27,090 bases of DNA, from IMG/VR virus record IMGVR_UViG_3300043391_000934, positions 1-27,090 of that record, one strand, 5' to 3'. Origin of the DNA: a virus. Its lineage: Duplodnaviria; Caudoviricetes. The translations under genes and the position numbers were made by a program. Below, piece by piece: positions 9,008 through 27,090 of this stretch (positions are counted from its first letter, which is position 1; each line of letters begins with the position of its first letter). The notes below the pieces were generated by a model. That model ran no database searches. It was not told where the DNA came from and worked only from the letters and a program-made list of their open reading frames with translations.

Positions 9008-9223
9008 TTAATCTTTAAAGAAATAATCAACATTAACTTCTAGCGCCTCTGACAGTATTTTCAATTCGCTAATACCTGGAGACGATCTCCCAAGTTCCCA
9101 TTTAACAAACGTCGCAAACGATTGCTTCAATCCCAATCCTTTCAATTTGAAAAAGAAGTCCATTTGCGTTTTACCCATTTCCTTTCTCTTACAACTTATT
9201 TTTCTACCTGTGCTTGTGGTCAT
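9008..9223 (-). CDS. XRE/Cro-like helix-turn-helix regulator
   Basis: GRKI...RKEMGKTQ...KWELGRSSP.I.EL..L.EALEV.VDYF; first gene of the early operon. Confidence 0.88.
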   Translation of the reverse strand: MTTSTGRKISCKRKEMGKTQMDFFFKLKGLGLKQSFATFVKWELGRSSPGISELKILSEALEVNVDYFFKD

Positions 9224-9229
9224 TCCTTT

Positions 9230-9258
9230 ATATTAACATTTACATATATAGTAGTCAA
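9230..9258 (-). promoter_or_regulatory. Sigma70-type promoter for the cro-like gene and early operon
   Basis: TTGACT (9258-9253), 17 bp, TAATAT (9235-9230) with extended -10 TG; only 6 nt before the ATG. Confidence 0.75.
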
Positions 9259-9306
9259 TAGGTAAATCTACAAGTGTATAAAAACAACATTAGTATAACG
9301 GGGTAT

Positions 9307-9335
9307 CCGTTCCCCTCGTAGGCGGGGATGAACCG
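9307..9335 (+). CRISPR. Solitary type I-E CRISPR-repeat-like unit (not an array)
   Basis: CCGTTCCCCTCGTAGGCGGGGATGAACCG, 29 nt, matches the I-E pattern GTTCCCCGC-N4-GCGGGGATRAACCG with one stem mismatch (T9316) and an intact 8-nt handle ATGAACCG; no second repeat seen. Confidence 0.75.
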
Positions 9336-9458
9336 ACATTATTCGTGCTCAAAAAGTTGCTGAGTTATTGGCCGAAAATGCTGAGTTGAAATTGCAAGCT
9401 GCGGTTGCCGGTAAACTGAAGTAGGGTTATAAGTAAACACGTATGATAAATTTTACTG

Positions 9459-10361: not shown

Positions 10362-10739
10362 TTAAATTACCTCATCAATTAATTTTGTAATCTGAATCAA
10401 TTTGTTTTTATCTGATATTTTGCGAGTATCTCCGAACCCGTCAATTACGTGTTTAATATCAATTAATCCCGTTGAATAGGTATCAATGACAAATTCCAAT
10501 TCACGCACCTGCGATGATTCAGTATTTCCCAACTGATCAATTCGAGCCTCAAGGGATTGAGTGAATGATTCGACCACTTCCCACAATTGTGGATCAATTG
10601 ACTCGACTAAGTCCTGAATCTGGTCGCTTAGTTCGTACTTGTATTGCGCTACGAATACACGCTTGCCTTCAACGAATCCTGCGACGCGGCACCCTCGGTG
10701 GTTGGTTGGCGGGTATATCCTGGTTTCGATTGCGCGCAT
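10362..10739 (-). CDS. Hypothetical phage early protein (IETRIYPPTNHRG N-terminus)
   Basis: Strong RBS GAGGAG; the PTN.RG.R motif recurs in phage early proteins; coiled-coil C-terminal half. Confidence 0.7.
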   Translation of the reverse strand: MRAIETRIYPPTNHRGCRVAGFVEGKRVFVAQYKYELSDQIQDLVESIDPQLWEVVESFTQSLEARIDQLGNTESSQVRELEFVIDTYSTGLIDIKHVIDGFGDTRKISDKNKLIQITKLIDEVI

Positions 10740-19390: not shown

Positions 19391-19682
19391 TTTATCCGAA
19401 AGTTTTCTCAATCTTGATGGTACAAAGGCGATAAATGCCCCAATGGGGAAAACTCTTTCCCATCAATTCGCACAGGCAAATAGCGATTCCCCTGCAAAGT
19501 ACATGACATGGGCAGTTCAGTTATGGAAAGACTCATATTTTGAGGTTAGCGAATCAGAGCTTAAAGAGATCGTTTCATTCATTGAAAAAAATCAAGCGCT
19601 CACCAATTTGGCAAAGCATCAGCTATTAGAACAAATCAGCAAATGCGAAAACCGAGTAGCAAAGAATTCGGAAGCCCAATAA
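19377..19682 (+). CDS. Hypothetical protein
   Basis: Start MVYIDL at 19377 with GGGAG RBS; TAATG coupling to the first glycosyltransferase. Confidence 0.7.
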   Translation: MVYIDLSESFLNLDGTKAINAPMGKTLSHQFAQANSDSPAKYMTWAVQLWKDSYFEVSESELKEIVSFIEKNQALTNLAKHQLLEQISKCENRVAKNSEAQ

Positions 19683-21364
19683 TGAAAATCAATGTAATTG
19701 TTCCATTCTATAAAAACCACGACACTATCGAGCGGCTTTTAATGTCGCTTGATGATCAAGACTATAAAAACTTCGACGTCACGATTGTGAGTGACGGGCC
19801 AGACAAAGAGATTGAGGCGACTATCGGCACATATCTTGAAGCTGGGCGATTTGGATTTCCTTTAAAGTTTGAGTCATTACCAGAAAATAAAGGGGCTCCC
19901 GCCGCCCGTAACTTTGGCGCACAAATATCAGGCGAGGAATTGCCACATAGCTACTCACACAAGAGCACAAAGGCAGGCGCTGGGGAGATCCTGTTTTTCC
20001 TTGATGCTGACTGCCAAATGTACCCCGGAATTTTCTCGGAATTCATTACCCAATTCAAAAAGGACCCGAAAGTAGCCTTTGTGTATGGGAATTATCGATT
20101 TGAGAATAAATACGAATTCCATTCACAGCCGTTTGACGCATACTTACTCGAAACCATGAACTATATCCCTACTATGTCACCGATTCGAAGGTCGGTATTT
20201 AATGAAGTGGGGAAATTCATTGAAGGTCAACCATACTTTCAAGATTGGTCCCTGTTTTACAGAGCCGCAAAGGCTGGGTTTCAGGGGAAATTCATCAAAG
20301 AGTTCATCTTTACAACAAAAACATCTACCGAAGACAATATTTCAGGTACAAAAGGGCTCTCTCTGGACGAAAAGGCAGAAAAATTCCGCGATGAACACGG
20401 TATCGATCACAAGCCGTTCGCGATTACTACCTGGGGCGCGCCACTGCAAGCAATCCAACGGGCTAAAATCTTAGGCGCCGACTATGTTGGGCCGGCCAAT
20501 GGTTCCCGGCGTCAAGTTTTTCCAGTGAATTATCAATTCAAGAACTGGAAGGGCACTTACATAATGGGGGTTTATTCCGACCCATTATCTGCCTTTCAAA
20601 ATCACCTGTCCGTACTTTATGGTGAAAAGAAGGTATATCACTTTATTGGAACCGATGTTTTTCAGATGATGACAACACATCCGGCATTTGAGATTGAGGC
20701 TATCAGCAACGTATTTAAGCTTCAGAAGGCCACCGTGTTTGCAAACAGCCCTCGAATGGTTCGTGAATTGGCATCGGTTGGAATCGAAAGTGAGCTATTG
20801 TATACACCGATTTACAATATGAATCAGTATCAATCGTTCCGAGTAATGCCGGAAAAACTCACGATTGCAGTCTATTACAGCGATACAAACCCAATGCATT
20901 CTAGGGACGGACAGGGCGGATTAAGTAATATCCCATTGCTTTTAGACGTCGCGTATTCAATGCCAGACGTCAATTTCAAATTCTTTGGTGGCCAAGCCAA
21001 GGGAATAGATAAAAACGTTGAATGGTGCGGACGTATACCTGAGGAGAAAATGAATGAATTTATCAACTCTTGCTCTGGTATTATTCGGTCAACGATTCAT
21101 GATGGGTTTCCACAATTGCCGATACAGTTTATGTTAGCGGGTCGCCACGCGCTGGTAAGTTGCCCAGATAGGGAGATGGCATATGCGGATAAACTATCCT
21201 TCGAGGATATCAATCATTACGAAAACTCGAAAAATGAGGTTATTTCTAAGATTTATGCGCTTGAGTCGAAAAGTGGTCCGAATCCTGGAGATACTCATGG
21301 GTACTACAAAGCGTTGATGAATGAGGACTATTACCGAGAAAGGGTCCGCTCATGTTTCGCATAG
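19682..21364 (+). CDS. Two-domain glycosyltransferase: N-terminal GT2 (GT-A) plus C-terminal GT-B-like domain
   Basis: INVIVPFYK, IVSDGP, NKGAPAARNFG, FFLDAD and FQDW in the N-half; PDVNFKFFGG..NVEWCGRIP...IRSTIHDGFP..P..FMLAGR in the C-half. Confidence 0.88.
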   Translation: MKINVIVPFYKNHDTIERLLMSLDDQDYKNFDVTIVSDGPDKEIEATIGTYLEAGRFGFPLKFESLPENKGAPAARNFGAQISGEELPHSYSHKSTKAGAGEILFFLDADCQMYPGIFSEFITQFKKDPKVAFVYGNYRFENKYEFHSQPFDAYLLETMNYIPTMSPIRRSVFNEVGKFIEGQPYFQDWSLFYRAAKAGFQGKFIKEFIFTTKTSTEDNISGTKGLSLDEKAEKFRDEHGIDHKPFAITTWGAPLQAIQRAKILGADYVGPANGSRRQVFPVNYQFKNWKGTYIMGVYSDPLSAFQNHLSVLYGEKKVYHFIGTDVFQMMTTHPAFEIEAISNVFKLQKATVFANSPRMVRELASVGIESELLYTPIYNMNQYQSFRVMPEKLTIAVYYSDTNPMHSRDGQGGLSNIPLLLDVAYSMPDVNFKFFGGQAKGIDKNVEWCGRIPEEKMNEFINSCSGIIRSTIHDGFPQLPIQFMLAGRHALVSCPDREMAYADKLSFEDINHYENSKNEVISKIYALESKSGPNPGDTHGYYKALMNEDYYRERVRSCFA

Positions 21365-22101
21365 GCATTGTAGGATTCGGATTTGTTGGTCAAGCTGTGT
21401 ATGGCTCAATAACCCCGCATAGGTCTGAAGTTTGTGTTTATGACAAATACAAAGAGATGGGCAGCATCGAATCCATCAATAAGTCTCAAATTGTGTTTGT
21501 ATGTGTCCCGACACCAACTATTAATGGTGTGCAATCAACAGAAGAGCTAGATGAGGTTATGAGCTGGCTTACAGGTCCATTGATTGTCATCAAAAGCACA
21601 GTTTTACCAACATGGTTTGAAAAGCATCCAACAGTTGTTTATAACCCCGAATTCTTGAATCAAAATAATGCGATTTCAGATTTCAGGAACCAAGAATCAA
21701 TGGTAATTGGTGCGAGGGCGGATCTTGCTTTGGTACTTGAGAACGTGTACAACAACTATTTCACAATTGACTCAGACCGTATTTTTTGCAGCTTAAAAGA
21801 GGCGGCCGAATTTAAGTACACCCACAACCTTTACCATGCCTACAAGGCTCTTTTTTGGCACTATGTTCAAGAGTTAACAGGTAATCAGCGAAAGATGTTT
21901 TCTATGTATTCCAAGTTATACGGCACTAACGAGTCAAGAGAAATGGCGCGTATTTGTGCGGATGGTGAGCCAGGAGTTGGTGGTGCATGCTTCCCAAAGG
22001 ATATGGTTGCAATCAATTCAATGTTTAATCACGAATTGACAAAGATGATGATCGGATACAATAGCGCATTAAGAACCGACACGATGGAGGCTGTATTGTG
22101 A
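21352..22101 (+). CDS. UDP-glucose/GDP-mannose 6-dehydrogenase family protein, short form
   Basis: IGIVGFGFVG, FVCVPTP, VIKSTV, YNPEFL and catalytic-Cys motif GGACFPKD; 249 aa, with no C-terminal UDP-binding domain. Confidence 0.88.
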   Translation: MFRIGIVGFGFVGQAVYGSITPHRSEVCVYDKYKEMGSIESINKSQIVFVCVPTPTINGVQSTEELDEVMSWLTGPLIVIKSTVLPTWFEKHPTVVYNPEFLNQNNAISDFRNQESMVIGARADLALVLENVYNNYFTIDSDRIFCSLKEAAEFKYTHNLYHAYKALFWHYVQELTGNQRKMFSMYSKLYGTNESREMARICADGEPGVGGACFPKDMVAINSMFNHELTKMMIGYNSALRTDTMEAVL

Positions 22102-22913
22102 ATGTTCTGGTTATTGGCGGGTATGGCTTCATTGGGAGCCATCTTTGCAAGAAGCTAAAAGAAGAGGGCGTTTCGTTTGATATTTACGATAACGACACTC
22201 CAAATGGCAACCCAAGTGAAGCGTTAAAGGCCCGCAGAAAACAGGGGCTAGATAATCAGGTTTATGACATCAACGACTTGTCAAAGTACACCCATATCGT
22301 ACATCTAGGGTCTCTTGCTGGGCCTCGAAACGGGAATGATGAGGGTGAGTTTTATGAGAGGAATATAATGGGCCTTAGATTCTTACTTCCAAGAGTTAGC
22401 CAGAGCCAGCACTTCACTTATATAAGCTCATCGAGCATATTTGGAACTCCACAGACCGCATATTCTAAATCAAAAATGATTTGTGAAGGAATAACTCGGC
22501 TGTGGAGTAAAAGGTCATTGATTATTCGTCCGTTTACAGTGTATGGCGAGAATGGGCGACCAGAAATGCTTGTAACTAGGTGCGCATCACAAGGGAACGT
22601 ATTGATTAATGGGGATGGTAATTTAAAGCGGAAATTCACCTATGTTGGTGATTTGGTACGCATTATCATTGATGGGATTAAGATGAATGGGTCGGGGATC
22701 ATTAACGCAATTGGGAGGCATGAATATAGCATTTTAGATGTGGTACGAATATTCGGAAACTCTCACCGTTACGGGGATGAGTCGCCTTTTGATTTCAAGG
22801 AACAATCATCGGGATCTATCGTACTTGGTGAAGACTTTTCAGGTCAGAATATCTATTGTGAAACACGTATTGAAGATGTAAAAGATAAATTAATCGAAGG
22901 AAACAGACCATGA
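22098..22913 (+). CDS. NAD-dependent nucleotide-sugar epimerase/dehydratase (extended SDR)
   Basis: GGYGFIG, ISSSS, YSKSK (YxxxK), RPFTVYGENGRPEM and R.FTYVGD, resembling UDP-glucuronate 4-epimerases. Confidence 0.9.
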   Translation: MNVLVIGGYGFIGSHLCKKLKEEGVSFDIYDNDTPNGNPSEALKARRKQGLDNQVYDINDLSKYTHIVHLGSLAGPRNGNDEGEFYERNIMGLRFLLPRVSQSQHFTYISSSSIFGTPQTAYSKSKMICEGITRLWSKRSLIIRPFTVYGENGRPEMLVTRCASQGNVLINGDGNLKRKFTYVGDLVRIIIDGIKMNGSGIINAIGRHEYSILDVVRIFGNSHRYGDESPFDFKEQSSGSIVLGEDFSGQNIYCETRIEDVKDKLIEGNRP

Positions 22914-23593
22914 AATTGACTTTCGTTCTACCTGTACATAATGAACAATGCAATGTTGCAATCGCTTTAAGGCATCTTATTAGGCAGTCTGTTCCTGCTG
23001 AAATTATTGTTATTGATGATGGGTCTACCGATGCGACAATAAGGATTGTTAAAGAGATAATCAAAGACGCCCCAGAAGACAAGAAAATTATTTTCATTGA
23101 AAACCCAAAACGAATTGGTGCTGCTGCATGTCGGAATATGGGGAATAAGTTGGCGGAAGGCGATATAATTGCAGTGTGTGACGCCGAGATTTATTACAAG
23201 GACCGAGGCAAGGCAATCCTTGAATTCTTTGAATCATTCCCTGATAAAGGGTTTTTCTATTCCGCATTGCACCTAAAATCAGCCGAAACCCATGAGGATA
23301 TTGGGGAGATGCCAGCTATTGAATGGGATTTTAAATCAAAGTGCCCAATTTCTCACCCGTCCGTTGCGTATCGAAAAAGCGTTGCGATGCAATTTCCATA
23401 TCATGAAGCATCATTAGAAACGGATCTTTTTGAGTTTATGGCGTTGGATGCTCACAGGGGAGGCGTTTTGTTTGGGGGATGTCAAAATCCGCTACTATGC
23501 AAACTAGAAGGAAACTCAAATAGGGATATGATGGAATCCAAGATAGTAAAGCAACTTAAATATGAAGAATATGGGATTGAAGTATCTTTATGA
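22910..23593 (+). CDS. Glycosyltransferase family 2
   Basis: FVLPVHN, EIIVIDDGSTD.T, GAAACRN.G...A.GDIIAVCDA and HPSV.YRK. Confidence 0.9.
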   Translation: MKLTFVLPVHNEQCNVAIALRHLIRQSVPAEIIVIDDGSTDATIRIVKEIIKDAPEDKKIIFIENPKRIGAAACRNMGNKLAEGDIIAVCDAEIYYKDRGKAILEFFESFPDKGFFYSALHLKSAETHEDIGEMPAIEWDFKSKCPISHPSVAYRKSVAMQFPYHEASLETDLFEFMALDAHRGGVLFGGCQNPLLCKLEGNSNRDMMESKIVKQLKYEEYGIEVSL

Positions 23594-24234
23594 GGTATGA
23601 ATCTAAAGAGGAGGCGCAGGAATCCCATGTCCAGAATTATAGAAGCGACGGGATAGCAAAGAGAAAAGGGACGCGATATAGCTCCGATTTTTTGCGTGTA
23701 AACTTCATCATGGCCCATATTGATATGGATAGTCATGTTCTCGATGTTGGGTGTAACGGCGGAACCATATCCGTACCGTTAATGCAGCAAAAAGGGTGCT
23801 ATGTTAATGGCGTGGACATCGTTCCCGAGCTGGTTAAAAAGGCGCAGGATCGTGGAGTCTTTGCAATGGTTGGCGAGGCTGAGGACTTGAGTCAGTTTCG
23901 ACCAAATTCATTTGATCATGTTATCTGTTCAGAAGTACTTGAGCATCTATATGATCCACTTCCCGCAATAAGGGAAGCCTACAGGGTGTTAAAACCATCC
24001 GGTAGTTATCTTGTGACGGTTCCTCATCCTTTTGGGGAAATGGCCAAAAATCATAACCTTGGAGACTATCACCAGCAAAACTTTACACTTGAGATACTGG
24101 ATACCATTTTTCATAATGTATTCGAGCGTGGGAAAGTAGAGTTTTTTGAGATACCGTATTCAGAAGAGTTTTGCGTTGCCAATGGGTTGGATAAAAATCA
24201 GCCTCAATGGCTTGGATTAAAGGCGGTAAAATGA
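23590..24234 (+). CDS. Class I SAM-dependent methyltransferase
   Basis: VLDVGCNGG motif I, GVDI, FDHVICSEVLEHL.DP, RVLKPSG...VTVP; lacks DNA-methylase DPPY/PC motifs. Confidence 0.9.
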   Translation: MRYESKEEAQESHVQNYRSDGIAKRKGTRYSSDFLRVNFIMAHIDMDSHVLDVGCNGGTISVPLMQQKGCYVNGVDIVPELVKKAQDRGVFAMVGEAEDLSQFRPNSFDHVICSEVLEHLYDPLPAIREAYRVLKPSGSYLVTVPHPFGEMAKNHNLGDYHQQNFTLEILDTIFHNVFERGKVEFFEIPYSEEFCVANGLDKNQPQWLGLKAVK

Positions 24235-25343
24235 AAGTCTTATATGTAAATTCCCTCAACGTTGGCGTTTCTTACTGGCGACTTGAAAACTACGCAAGCG
24301 AGATGGTCCGGTTAAAAGTCCCCGTCTTTGTTGAATACTTATTCGATCCTCGGCTTGGGTATGCTTGGGATAAATTATGCTATGGCACTGGCGAGATATC
24401 GGAAAATATCCGGACAAAATTAGATCGGGCATTTAATCATTTCGATGTAATTATTTTCCAAAAAGTTCAGAATAAAGAAGGCGTGTATCTTATTCAGTCA
24501 CTTAAGGAGAAATACCCGTCCGTTGCGGTAATCGCTGAAATTGATGATTCACTTGGAGATATCACCCCATCAAATTTCAGAGAAATGAAGCATGAAGGGA
24601 CATGGGCGGCGGAACACTGCCATATTTCAGACGGGATCATATGCTCAACCCAACACCTGTCCGATTCAGTCGAAGCATTGAATGATAATAGATTCGTTGC
24701 GCCAAATTGCATAAACATTGAAACCTGGTCACCGGAAATTCATGAAGACAAAGACCCGTCAGCCCCATTTCGCTTTGTATACGTTGGTGGTGGTGGTCAC
24801 GATGAAGATCTTGAGATCATTCGAGAGCCCATGCTTCGGTTTTTGTCTGAAAACAGTAACGTGGAATTTGTTGTCCGATATGGTGGGTATGAATTGGATT
24901 GGATGAGAGGGAATCCTCAGATTGATTTTAAATCTGTTAATTGGTGTTTAGATGAGTACCCACAAAGACTTGCTGATTTACGTGCAGACGTTGCGTTGGC
25001 GCCACTTCGAGATTCCAACTTTAACCGATCTAAATCGGCATTAAAGTGGATCGAGTGGGGATCTATTGGGGTACCTCTACTTGCAAGCGATGTTGGACCA
25101 TATAAAGGACTTCCATACTCGGTGTTGTGTAGCAATTCGGATGATGCGTGGTATGAAGGGATTAATCTATCATTTAACAAGCCCAGAAACTCGGCTCAAT
25201 TGAAAGAATCCGTTTTTGAGCGGTTCAATTTACACGAAAACACAAAGGCGCTTATTGAATGGTTGACAGTTCTTTGTAATAATAAAAAAATATCTGAAAC
25301 AGATAGCCACAATGAATTAAAAAGCCCCTTCATTTTTTTGTAA
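24231..25343 (+). CDS. GT-B (GT4-like) glycosyltransferase
   Basis: YWRL, DVIIFQK, AEIDD, CST..L, APNCI, G..H.EDL, DVALAPL.DS.FNRSKS.LK..E...GVP.LASDV.PY. Confidence 0.88.
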   Translation: MKVLYVNSLNVGVSYWRLENYASEMVRLKVPVFVEYLFDPRLGYAWDKLCYGTGEISENIRTKLDRAFNHFDVIIFQKVQNKEGVYLIQSLKEKYPSVAVIAEIDDSLGDITPSNFREMKHEGTWAAEHCHISDGIICSTQHLSDSVEALNDNRFVAPNCINIETWSPEIHEDKDPSAPFRFVYVGGGGHDEDLEIIREPMLRFLSENSNVEFVVRYGGYELDWMRGNPQIDFKSVNWCLDEYPQRLADLRADVALAPLRDSNFNRSKSALKWIEWGSIGVPLLASDVGPYKGLPYSVLCSNSDDAWYEGINLSFNKPRNSAQLKESVFERFNLHENTKALIEWLTVLCNNKKISETDSHNELKSPFIFL

Positions 25344-26768: not shown

Positions 26769-27090
26769 ATGGCAATTTTCCCACTAACTCAAGTTCCGCT
26801 AATTGTTCCAGGTTGCGTTGGGTGGCTTGATGCATCTGACGCCTCAACTATTACGTCAAGTGGGGGCGCGGTTTCTTCTGTTAGAAATAAAGCGAATTCT
26901 CAAGTTCCGTTTACTCAAGCAGCTGGCGCAAAACAACCATTAACTGCAGTTAATACAATTGCTGGTAAAAACGTATTAACTTTTGATGGTGTTGATGATC
27001 AGTTAGATGTGTCAACCCTTTTTCCGTCACCACAGACAACCGGGTTTACAGTCTTTATAGTAGCCTTTCCATTAAACCCCGTAGTTGGAA
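26769..27090 (+). CDS. LamG/concanavalin-like tail-associated protein, truncated by the window end
   Basis: Hand translation MAIFPLTQVPLIVPGCVGWLDASDASTITSSGGAVSSVRNKANSQVPFTQ...QP...NTIAGKNVLTFDGVDDQL...FTVFIV; open to the end of the window. Confidence 0.75.
   Translation, partial: MAIFPLTQVPLIVPGCVGWLDASDASTITSSGGAVSSVRNKANSQVPFTQAAGAKQPLTAVNTIAGKNVLTFDGVDDQLDVSTLFPSPQTTGFTVFIVAFPLNPVVG

Follow-up and report, generated by a model that had tools for sequence, protein, structure and literature searches.

The solitary type I-E CRISPR repeat of a freshwater phage is an exact copy of a host array repeat, stands directly behind a 32-nt protospacer flanked by AAG, and is most probably the scar of a recombination between the phage and a host array, which would have replaced the 5' part of a rightward gene. 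The window, i.e., the whole stretch of 27,090 nt that was analysed, has 42.5% GC and carries endolysin, Sak4-like, terminase, portal and capsid genes. The same phage is represented by record G001, which adds 10 kb and brings its known DNA to 37.3 kb in total. INPHARED gave no match, and the Sak4 relatives (≤70% identity) have no repeat and are too distant for synteny. The features are collected in Table 1.

Table 1. Positions of the repeat, of its flanks and of the protospacers in the window.
Feature	Positions	Strand	Basis or remark
XRE/Cro-like HTH gene (71 aa), head of leftward operon	9008-9223	-	Pfam HTH_3, E=7e-5; PHROGs transcriptional regulator
Leftward sigma70-like promoter, TTGACT-17-TAATAT	9258-9230	-	Consensus match only, 9/12
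AAG, canonical I-E PAM	9272-9274	+	Exactly 35-33 nt before the repeat
Protospacer A (32 nt), containing -10-like boxes	9275-9306	+	Putative spacer in the host array of run X6
Solitary type I-E repeat, CCGTTCCCCTCGTAGGCGGGGATGAACCG	9307-9335	+	29 nt, hairpin with T9316 mismatch
Predicted 8-nt 5' handle, ATGAACCG	9328-9335	+	Sequence, fold
Start-less coding remnant of 29 codons, ending in TAG	9335-9424	+	Codon score
Segment B, the «guide» of the earlier note, first 32 nt after the repeat	9336-9367	+	Part of the remnant
Protospacer C, AAT at 10570-10568	10536-10567	-	Site where an X3 contig connects two array repeats with the phage
Protospacer D, with AAG PAM	26986-27017	-	Matches X6 array spacer

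The earlier note had described one 29-nt I-E unit with its hairpin and an intact handle, and the coordinates, the uniqueness and the fold of this unit are all confirmed. No other ungapped match in the window has fewer than 11 mismatches, the repeat pattern was matched in 0 of 100 shuffles, and the second copy, rightly said to be missing from the window, is also missing from the 10-kb extension. Cas6e presumably cuts at the stem base, with a predicted position between 9327 and 9328, and leaves an 8-nt 5' handle. The array repeats of two sequencing runs (X3 and X6) are identical to the phage repeat, T9316 included, and their spacers have 32 nt. T9316, which had been suggested as possible decay or as slowing cleavage, is thus neither a decayed position nor a tuning mutation, since the host repeats carry the same letter. 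The unit is classified as a type I-E CRISPR repeat. The proposed comparison with host repeats succeeded in part: 26 of the 29 nt are identical in the repeat of a Desulfuromonadales array (L141), which belongs to a complete I-E locus with profile matches to Cas3, Cse1, Cse2, Cas7, Cas5e, Cas6e, Cas1e and Cas2e, but no genome with the exact repeat was obtained. Exact-repeat scans gave 0 in viral contigs, 0 in JGI metagenomes, and two loci in GTDB genomes, neither of them identical to the phage repeat. Rfam gave no match at the repeat locus and two weak matches elsewhere in the window.

By its definition, applied directly to the sequence, the locus is a solitary repeat unit (SRU): it matches a host repeat over the full length, has no partial neighbour within ≤100 bp, lies outside annotated ORFs, and stands on a mobile element (terminase, portal and capsid matches). 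As had been claimed for the window, no cas family matched among the ORFs scanned (49 of the 112 listed ORFs against PHROGs, subsets against other profiles). It is not a viral mini-array, no second full or truncated repeat being found after one spacer.

The left flank had been seen as an AT-rich leader; it is rather a PAM-flanked protospacer (AAG + 32 nt) than a dedicated leader. The AAG is the sole one in the 83-nt stretch 9224-9306, and a PAM plus a protospacer of spacer length directly 5' of the repeat is the arrangement expected of an array-recombination scar. Record 19 of run X6 has 89 nt, of which letters 29-89 agree with 9274-9334 at every position, with no loose end among the matches listed. 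Since 89 = 28 + 61, as given by repeat(1-28) + G + 32 nt + repeat(1-28), we infer that this record is repeat-A-repeat and that 9275-9306 is a host spacer; this relies on the record length, letters 29-89 having been compared and the first 28 being assumed to be repeat.

The right flank is coding DNA. The codon score of the remnant is attained by none of 358 stop-free windows in a wrong frame and by 16% of 373 true coding windows; for B alone, the score is reached by 0.4% of 1557 wrong-frame windows. An in-frame TGA lies inside the repeat. An ATG in the repeat was considered as start of the remnant and rejected (wrong frame). Since 9335-9424 codes without a start, the repeat is read, on codon usage, as adjoining the 3' end of a gene that lacks its 5' part. 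From the layout, a repressor gene is possible. The remnant has 0 matches among 1.84 billion proteins, Atlas matches under 0.9 and one weak PHROG match (E=0.003). The site had been presented as that of a cI gene: the layout fits, but neither cI nor integrase was detected among the ORFs scanned in the 37.3 kb known of this genome, which is not closed. The HTH protein has no relative except itself.

Segment B had been proposed as a possible guide of host Cascade against a competitor or a promoter. This is abandoned: B is truncated coding DNA that belongs to the phage, and neither the window nor the loci compared contain another target for it (none within 10 mismatches). Within these sequences, the suggested search for B protospacers gave only the phage itself, without PAM. 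As a spacer, B was not seen in the seven runs examined, including X6, which has A. Two X6 records touch this region. Record 21 is a phage variant with different DNA and a terminator-like hairpin before window position 9442; the stretch to the right of the repeat therefore differs among variants. In record 20, a spacer aligns over 6 nt with the start of B (9336-9341), with one mismatch somewhere in the 33-nt piece, which is either chance or right-junction microhomology.

As regards origin only, the main rival is that the locus is a dedicated and selected gene for an RNA anti-CRISPR (Racr) or a mini-guide and has a dedicated leader, so that PAM geometry and X6 spacer would be coincidental. This is improbable. 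It accords with a repeat, hairpin and handle that are all intact, with the same allele in three samples, with two I-E Racrs reported as functional (PMC10651486), and with the -10-like boxes just upstream, which are present as described (TAGTAT at 9291-9296 and TATAAC at 9294-9299). However, AAG occurs at 1.9% of sites, and one of the ~1,360 AAG sites on both strands of the 37.3 kb known would have to be the sampled spacer; by a hand estimate, the chance that both the PAM and an X6 spacer fit an unrelated repeat is ~1e-3 or less. Moreover, the repeat has not drifted from that of the host, and the best rightward promoter candidate scores 8/12, none being above the scan threshold. The alleged divergence from the cro promoter is confirmed for its leftward half (a promoter-like site before the HTH_3 gene) but not for the rightward one. 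Racrs are often, not obligatorily, beside acr/aca genes; here, no acr/aca match was found among 23 nearby small ORFs in NCBIfam, nor in PHROGs or Pfam, profiles that leave room for novel Acrs.

Whatever the origin, the phage repeat might have some anti-CRISPR or guide activity, which we regard as a tentative possibility. Cas6 cleavage is predicted if the locus is transcribed, because the phage repeat equals that of the host. In the case of RacrIF1, inhibition is due to the cleavage product upstream of the cut, not to the one with the handle (PMC10651486). If transcription began close to the -10 boxes, the upstream product would be approximately the hairpin only, i.e., a possible Cas6 sink and a poor Cas7 scaffold. 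The predicted downstream product is the handle plus B, with neither 3' hairpin nor clear terminator; because it is known to match nothing but this phage, where the PAM is missing, such a guide could act only on unscarred sisters. Weak transcription from the promoter of the old gene could add a Cas6e-processed RNA, giving both a hairpin decoy and a handle-plus-B guide against sister phages. A scar working as a Racr would be a novel case.

Nine sequencing runs contain part of the window, seven of which were examined (X2 and X8 were left out); the repeat locus is not covered in X5, X7 and X9. Runs X1, X3 and X4 carry the phage form, with no loose end at either junction. In X1, possibly the sample of origin (~87% of the run covered), a 3683-nt contig with a depth of 15.6 runs through the site; the part covered contains no array record, no alternative junction and no loose end at 9306 or 9336. 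In X3, from another study, the same junction is found in a 508-nt contig over 9116-9623. In X4, from a third study, a 151-nt record over 9237-9387 has 0 differences, and no array record is found among the matches listed; this record is probably one read, because many X4 records are exactly 151 nt. An assembly chimera, the artefact that the earlier note had feared, would require that the assembler jumped from the phage to the host array via spacer A and came back via B. Spacers of 32-33 nt do bridge k=31 graphs, and X3 record 8, which may itself be a chimera, joins array and phage beside an 8-nt coverage gap; nevertheless, with contigs or records from three samples spanning the repeat, a chimera is very unlikely here.

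The scar also supposes a host whose arrays meet this phage. In X6, most of the 36 records lie on the repeat, with a summed depth of ~200 vs. 2-4 for the phage, and one spacer matches window positions 26988-27017 (minus strand) behind AAG, with 0 mismatches over the 30 letters compared. In X3, one record has two array repeats; at the X3 join at 10567 (minus strand), the adjacent repeat copy has one difference and the phage has AAT. The last repeat base may derive from the PAM, which fits both the AAT at C and this one difference. The X6 spacer match at D and the X3 join at C thus indicate that a host with this repeat targets this phage, and the type I-E system that had been suspected in the host is borne out by arrays with the identical repeat. 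Another two spacers (one from X3, one from X6) match neither the window nor its extension, and the spacers beside repeats in the other I-E loci examined have no match to the window. That the phage repeat is an attP for integration into the host array, as proposed for SRUs (PMC8616872), as reported for a Streptococcus phage (10.1101/2020.10.09.333658) and as the phage-array join of X3 record 8 could recall, is hardly credible, since no integrase matched among the ORFs scanned in the window and extension of this unclosed genome, the X3 join is at 10567 and not at the repeat, and both the PAM at -35 and the repeat-A-repeat record are left unexplained.

For the recombination scar, the following course can be proposed: (i) the host would have attacked the phage at or near B, Cas3 would have degraded the DNA upstream, and the break would have been mended on the array; (ii) the left crossover would lie in A, by homologous recombination with an existing spacer, a route to which we give about an even chance and which could either use A-repeat-B as the template for repair or enter in A and leave through microhomology; (iii) the right crossover would lie in B, which would be the spacer next to A or else provide microhomology; (iv) the product would lose the intervening DNA, and B, which follows the repeat end CCG instead of a PAM, would be hidden. 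We infer the deletion, its size and the former PAM before B, because no repeat-free ancestral allele was found for this phage (patterns in B against viral contigs and in A against metagenomes gave 0). During I-E priming in Escherichia coli, most new spacers are taken upstream of the priming site, with its orientation and an AAG PAM, consistent with Cas3 moving upstream (PMC5389539). Here A precedes B and shares its strand, in line with B being the older target. The PAM of A is still perfect, therefore there is no escape from spacer A, and this is the weak point of a pure escape reading; the present function is probably the escape effect at B.

Alternatively, the left junction could be a Cas1-Cas2 half-site joint of prespacer A to the first repeat with the PAM side still attached, which we consider rather unlikely. 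It would explain the retained PAM and the survival of the product, but needs a separate entry of A into the X6 array. Half-sites with unprocessed PAM are real Cas1-Cas2 intermediates, in which the 3' end of the prespacer is joined to the 5' end of the repeat with the PAM attached, like the left junction here (PMC10284694). They are known, however, as short-lived and with short overhangs, whereas here a whole phage arm would have been joined in this way.

The spacing of PAM and repeat recurs at other loci. Two viral-contig scans for I-E repeats gave 115 loci with 349 matches, 27 of which, near locus ends, were dropped. AAG occupies -35 to -33 in 13 of the 25 unique solitary I-E repeats, whereas offsets -34 and -36 have none and each remaining offset has ≤2 (binomial P=3e-16 for a rate of 0.02); a first pass with a different edge cut gave 11/22. 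Within arrays, AAG at -35 is found for 11/52 first repeats, 1/161 internal repeats and 0/38 last repeats; its lack in internal and last repeats is expected because the end of a repeat occupies that position. The flanks are often truncated genes (profile positions 39-81 of 312 for L069, 38-60 of 103 for L113, an integrase tail for L133). The published SRU table includes AAG-positive L060, and also AAG-negative L057 and L106. As the 25 solitary repeats are nearly all from metagenome assemblies, spacer-bridged chimeras, which can produce this pattern too (compare the 11/52 first repeats), may explain some or many of the 13.

Plasmids offered a chimera-free check. Among 11 published plasmid I-E SRUs, five were scored (three were left out for other repeats nearby, and three others were also left out), and one of the five has AAG at -35, i.e., the completed Streptomyces plasmid pTFSG1. 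The S8 allele, which lacks the repeat, can be aligned with it as far as the point where the repeat begins, and at this site a sister plasmid contains an additional repeat-spacer unit. On the right side, the join to an integrase tail involves only about the last 10 of the 32 nt that follow the repeat. Real DNA thus shows an exact left junction, and a full spacer match is not required on the right.

Streptomyces globisporus plasmids (L165, L170 and L171) contain, in one strain each, a solitary repeat, an extra repeat-spacer unit and a 10-nt protospacer deletion behind the PAM, which looks like an escape mutation. A 52-kb viral record rated 100% complete (G002, loci L045 and L139) has a pair of oppositely oriented solitary I-E repeats with 5 kb between them; each has AAG at -35, and their junctions recur in contigs from other samples (L104 and L133). 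No repeat-free relative was found for prophage locus L156.

Four known systems resemble the locus, one of them the half-site intermediate described above. (i) Viral SRUs and Racrs, RacrIE1 and RacrIE2 included (Camara-Wilpert et al. 2023, PMC10651486), share the one host-identical repeat outside annotated genes, with no cas and no partner repeat within ≤100 bp; unlike them, the phage repeat has a PAM-flanked protospacer upstream, a truncated gene downstream and no acr neighbour found, and can be called a putative Racr only. (ii) In spacer-mediated phage-CRISPR recombination (Varble et al. 2019, as summarised in PMC8616872), a spacer and its phage target likewise serve as the recombination point; there the outcome is transduction of the CRISPR locus in staphylococci, whereas here it is a viable type I-E phage allele that keeps a single repeat. 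(iii) Viral mini-CRISPR arrays (PMC8616872) also have a repeat followed by a spacer-length stretch able to guide host Cascade; here, in contrast, there is no second full or partial repeat, and the guide would be the phage's own gene remnant.

Recombination between spacer and target is thus already known; new are its occurrence in type I-E, the connection with a host spacer, the read-length support and the offset statistic. The main text of the paper that defined viral solitary repeats and Racrs does not take up their origin, «recombin» having 0 occurrences there (PMC10651486). No paper that derives SRUs from scars of this kind came out of the literature search; Faure 2019 and Varble 2019 lay outside this search and may bear on the origin. 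The present locus ties one solitary repeat to a host spacer and a PAM, and gives a one-line test for the whole published SRU catalogue, the presence of a PAM at one spacer length before the repeat. If the pattern holds in isolate genomes, it is an origin route for Racrs and a little-noticed phage escape; if it is found only in short-read metagenomes, it is an assembly artefact in the lists of Racr candidates.

A broader proposal, which we advance as speculative and on balance unlikely, is that about half of the phage solitary I-E repeats are born in one step, by array joining at a PAM-flanked target. Such a step would delete the targeted DNA, mask one PAM, put a host-perfect repeat under a phage promoter, and give both an RNA anti-CRISPR and a guide against unscarred sisters. 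If this is true, CRISPR immunity hands phages an RNA counter-defence, and a PAM one spacer length upstream marks each birth.

The repeat matches in cultured phages are mini-arrays, none being solitary. Two lytic phages, Klebsiella KP13-16 (OP617741.1, L158:1440-1640) and Salmonella KE23 (PP856722.1, L159:1440-1650), have a cassette in common that is missing in close relatives, i.e., an I-E-like leader and a mini-array of 2-3 repeats directly before a gene of ~415 aa. This gene is annotated as a transposase in KE23 and may be TnpB-like with a captured array.

Two other regions of the window should be mentioned. Between the capsid and tail genes (19643-25343) lies a block of glycosyltransferase, UDP-glucose dehydrogenase, sugar epimerase and methyltransferase genes, possibly for glycosylation of virion or DNA. 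The 57 nt at 10593-10649 flank an insert of ~233 nt in part of the X1 population; the window has the short form, and the insert form is a 293-nt record with a depth of 7.6 vs. 15.6-18.9.
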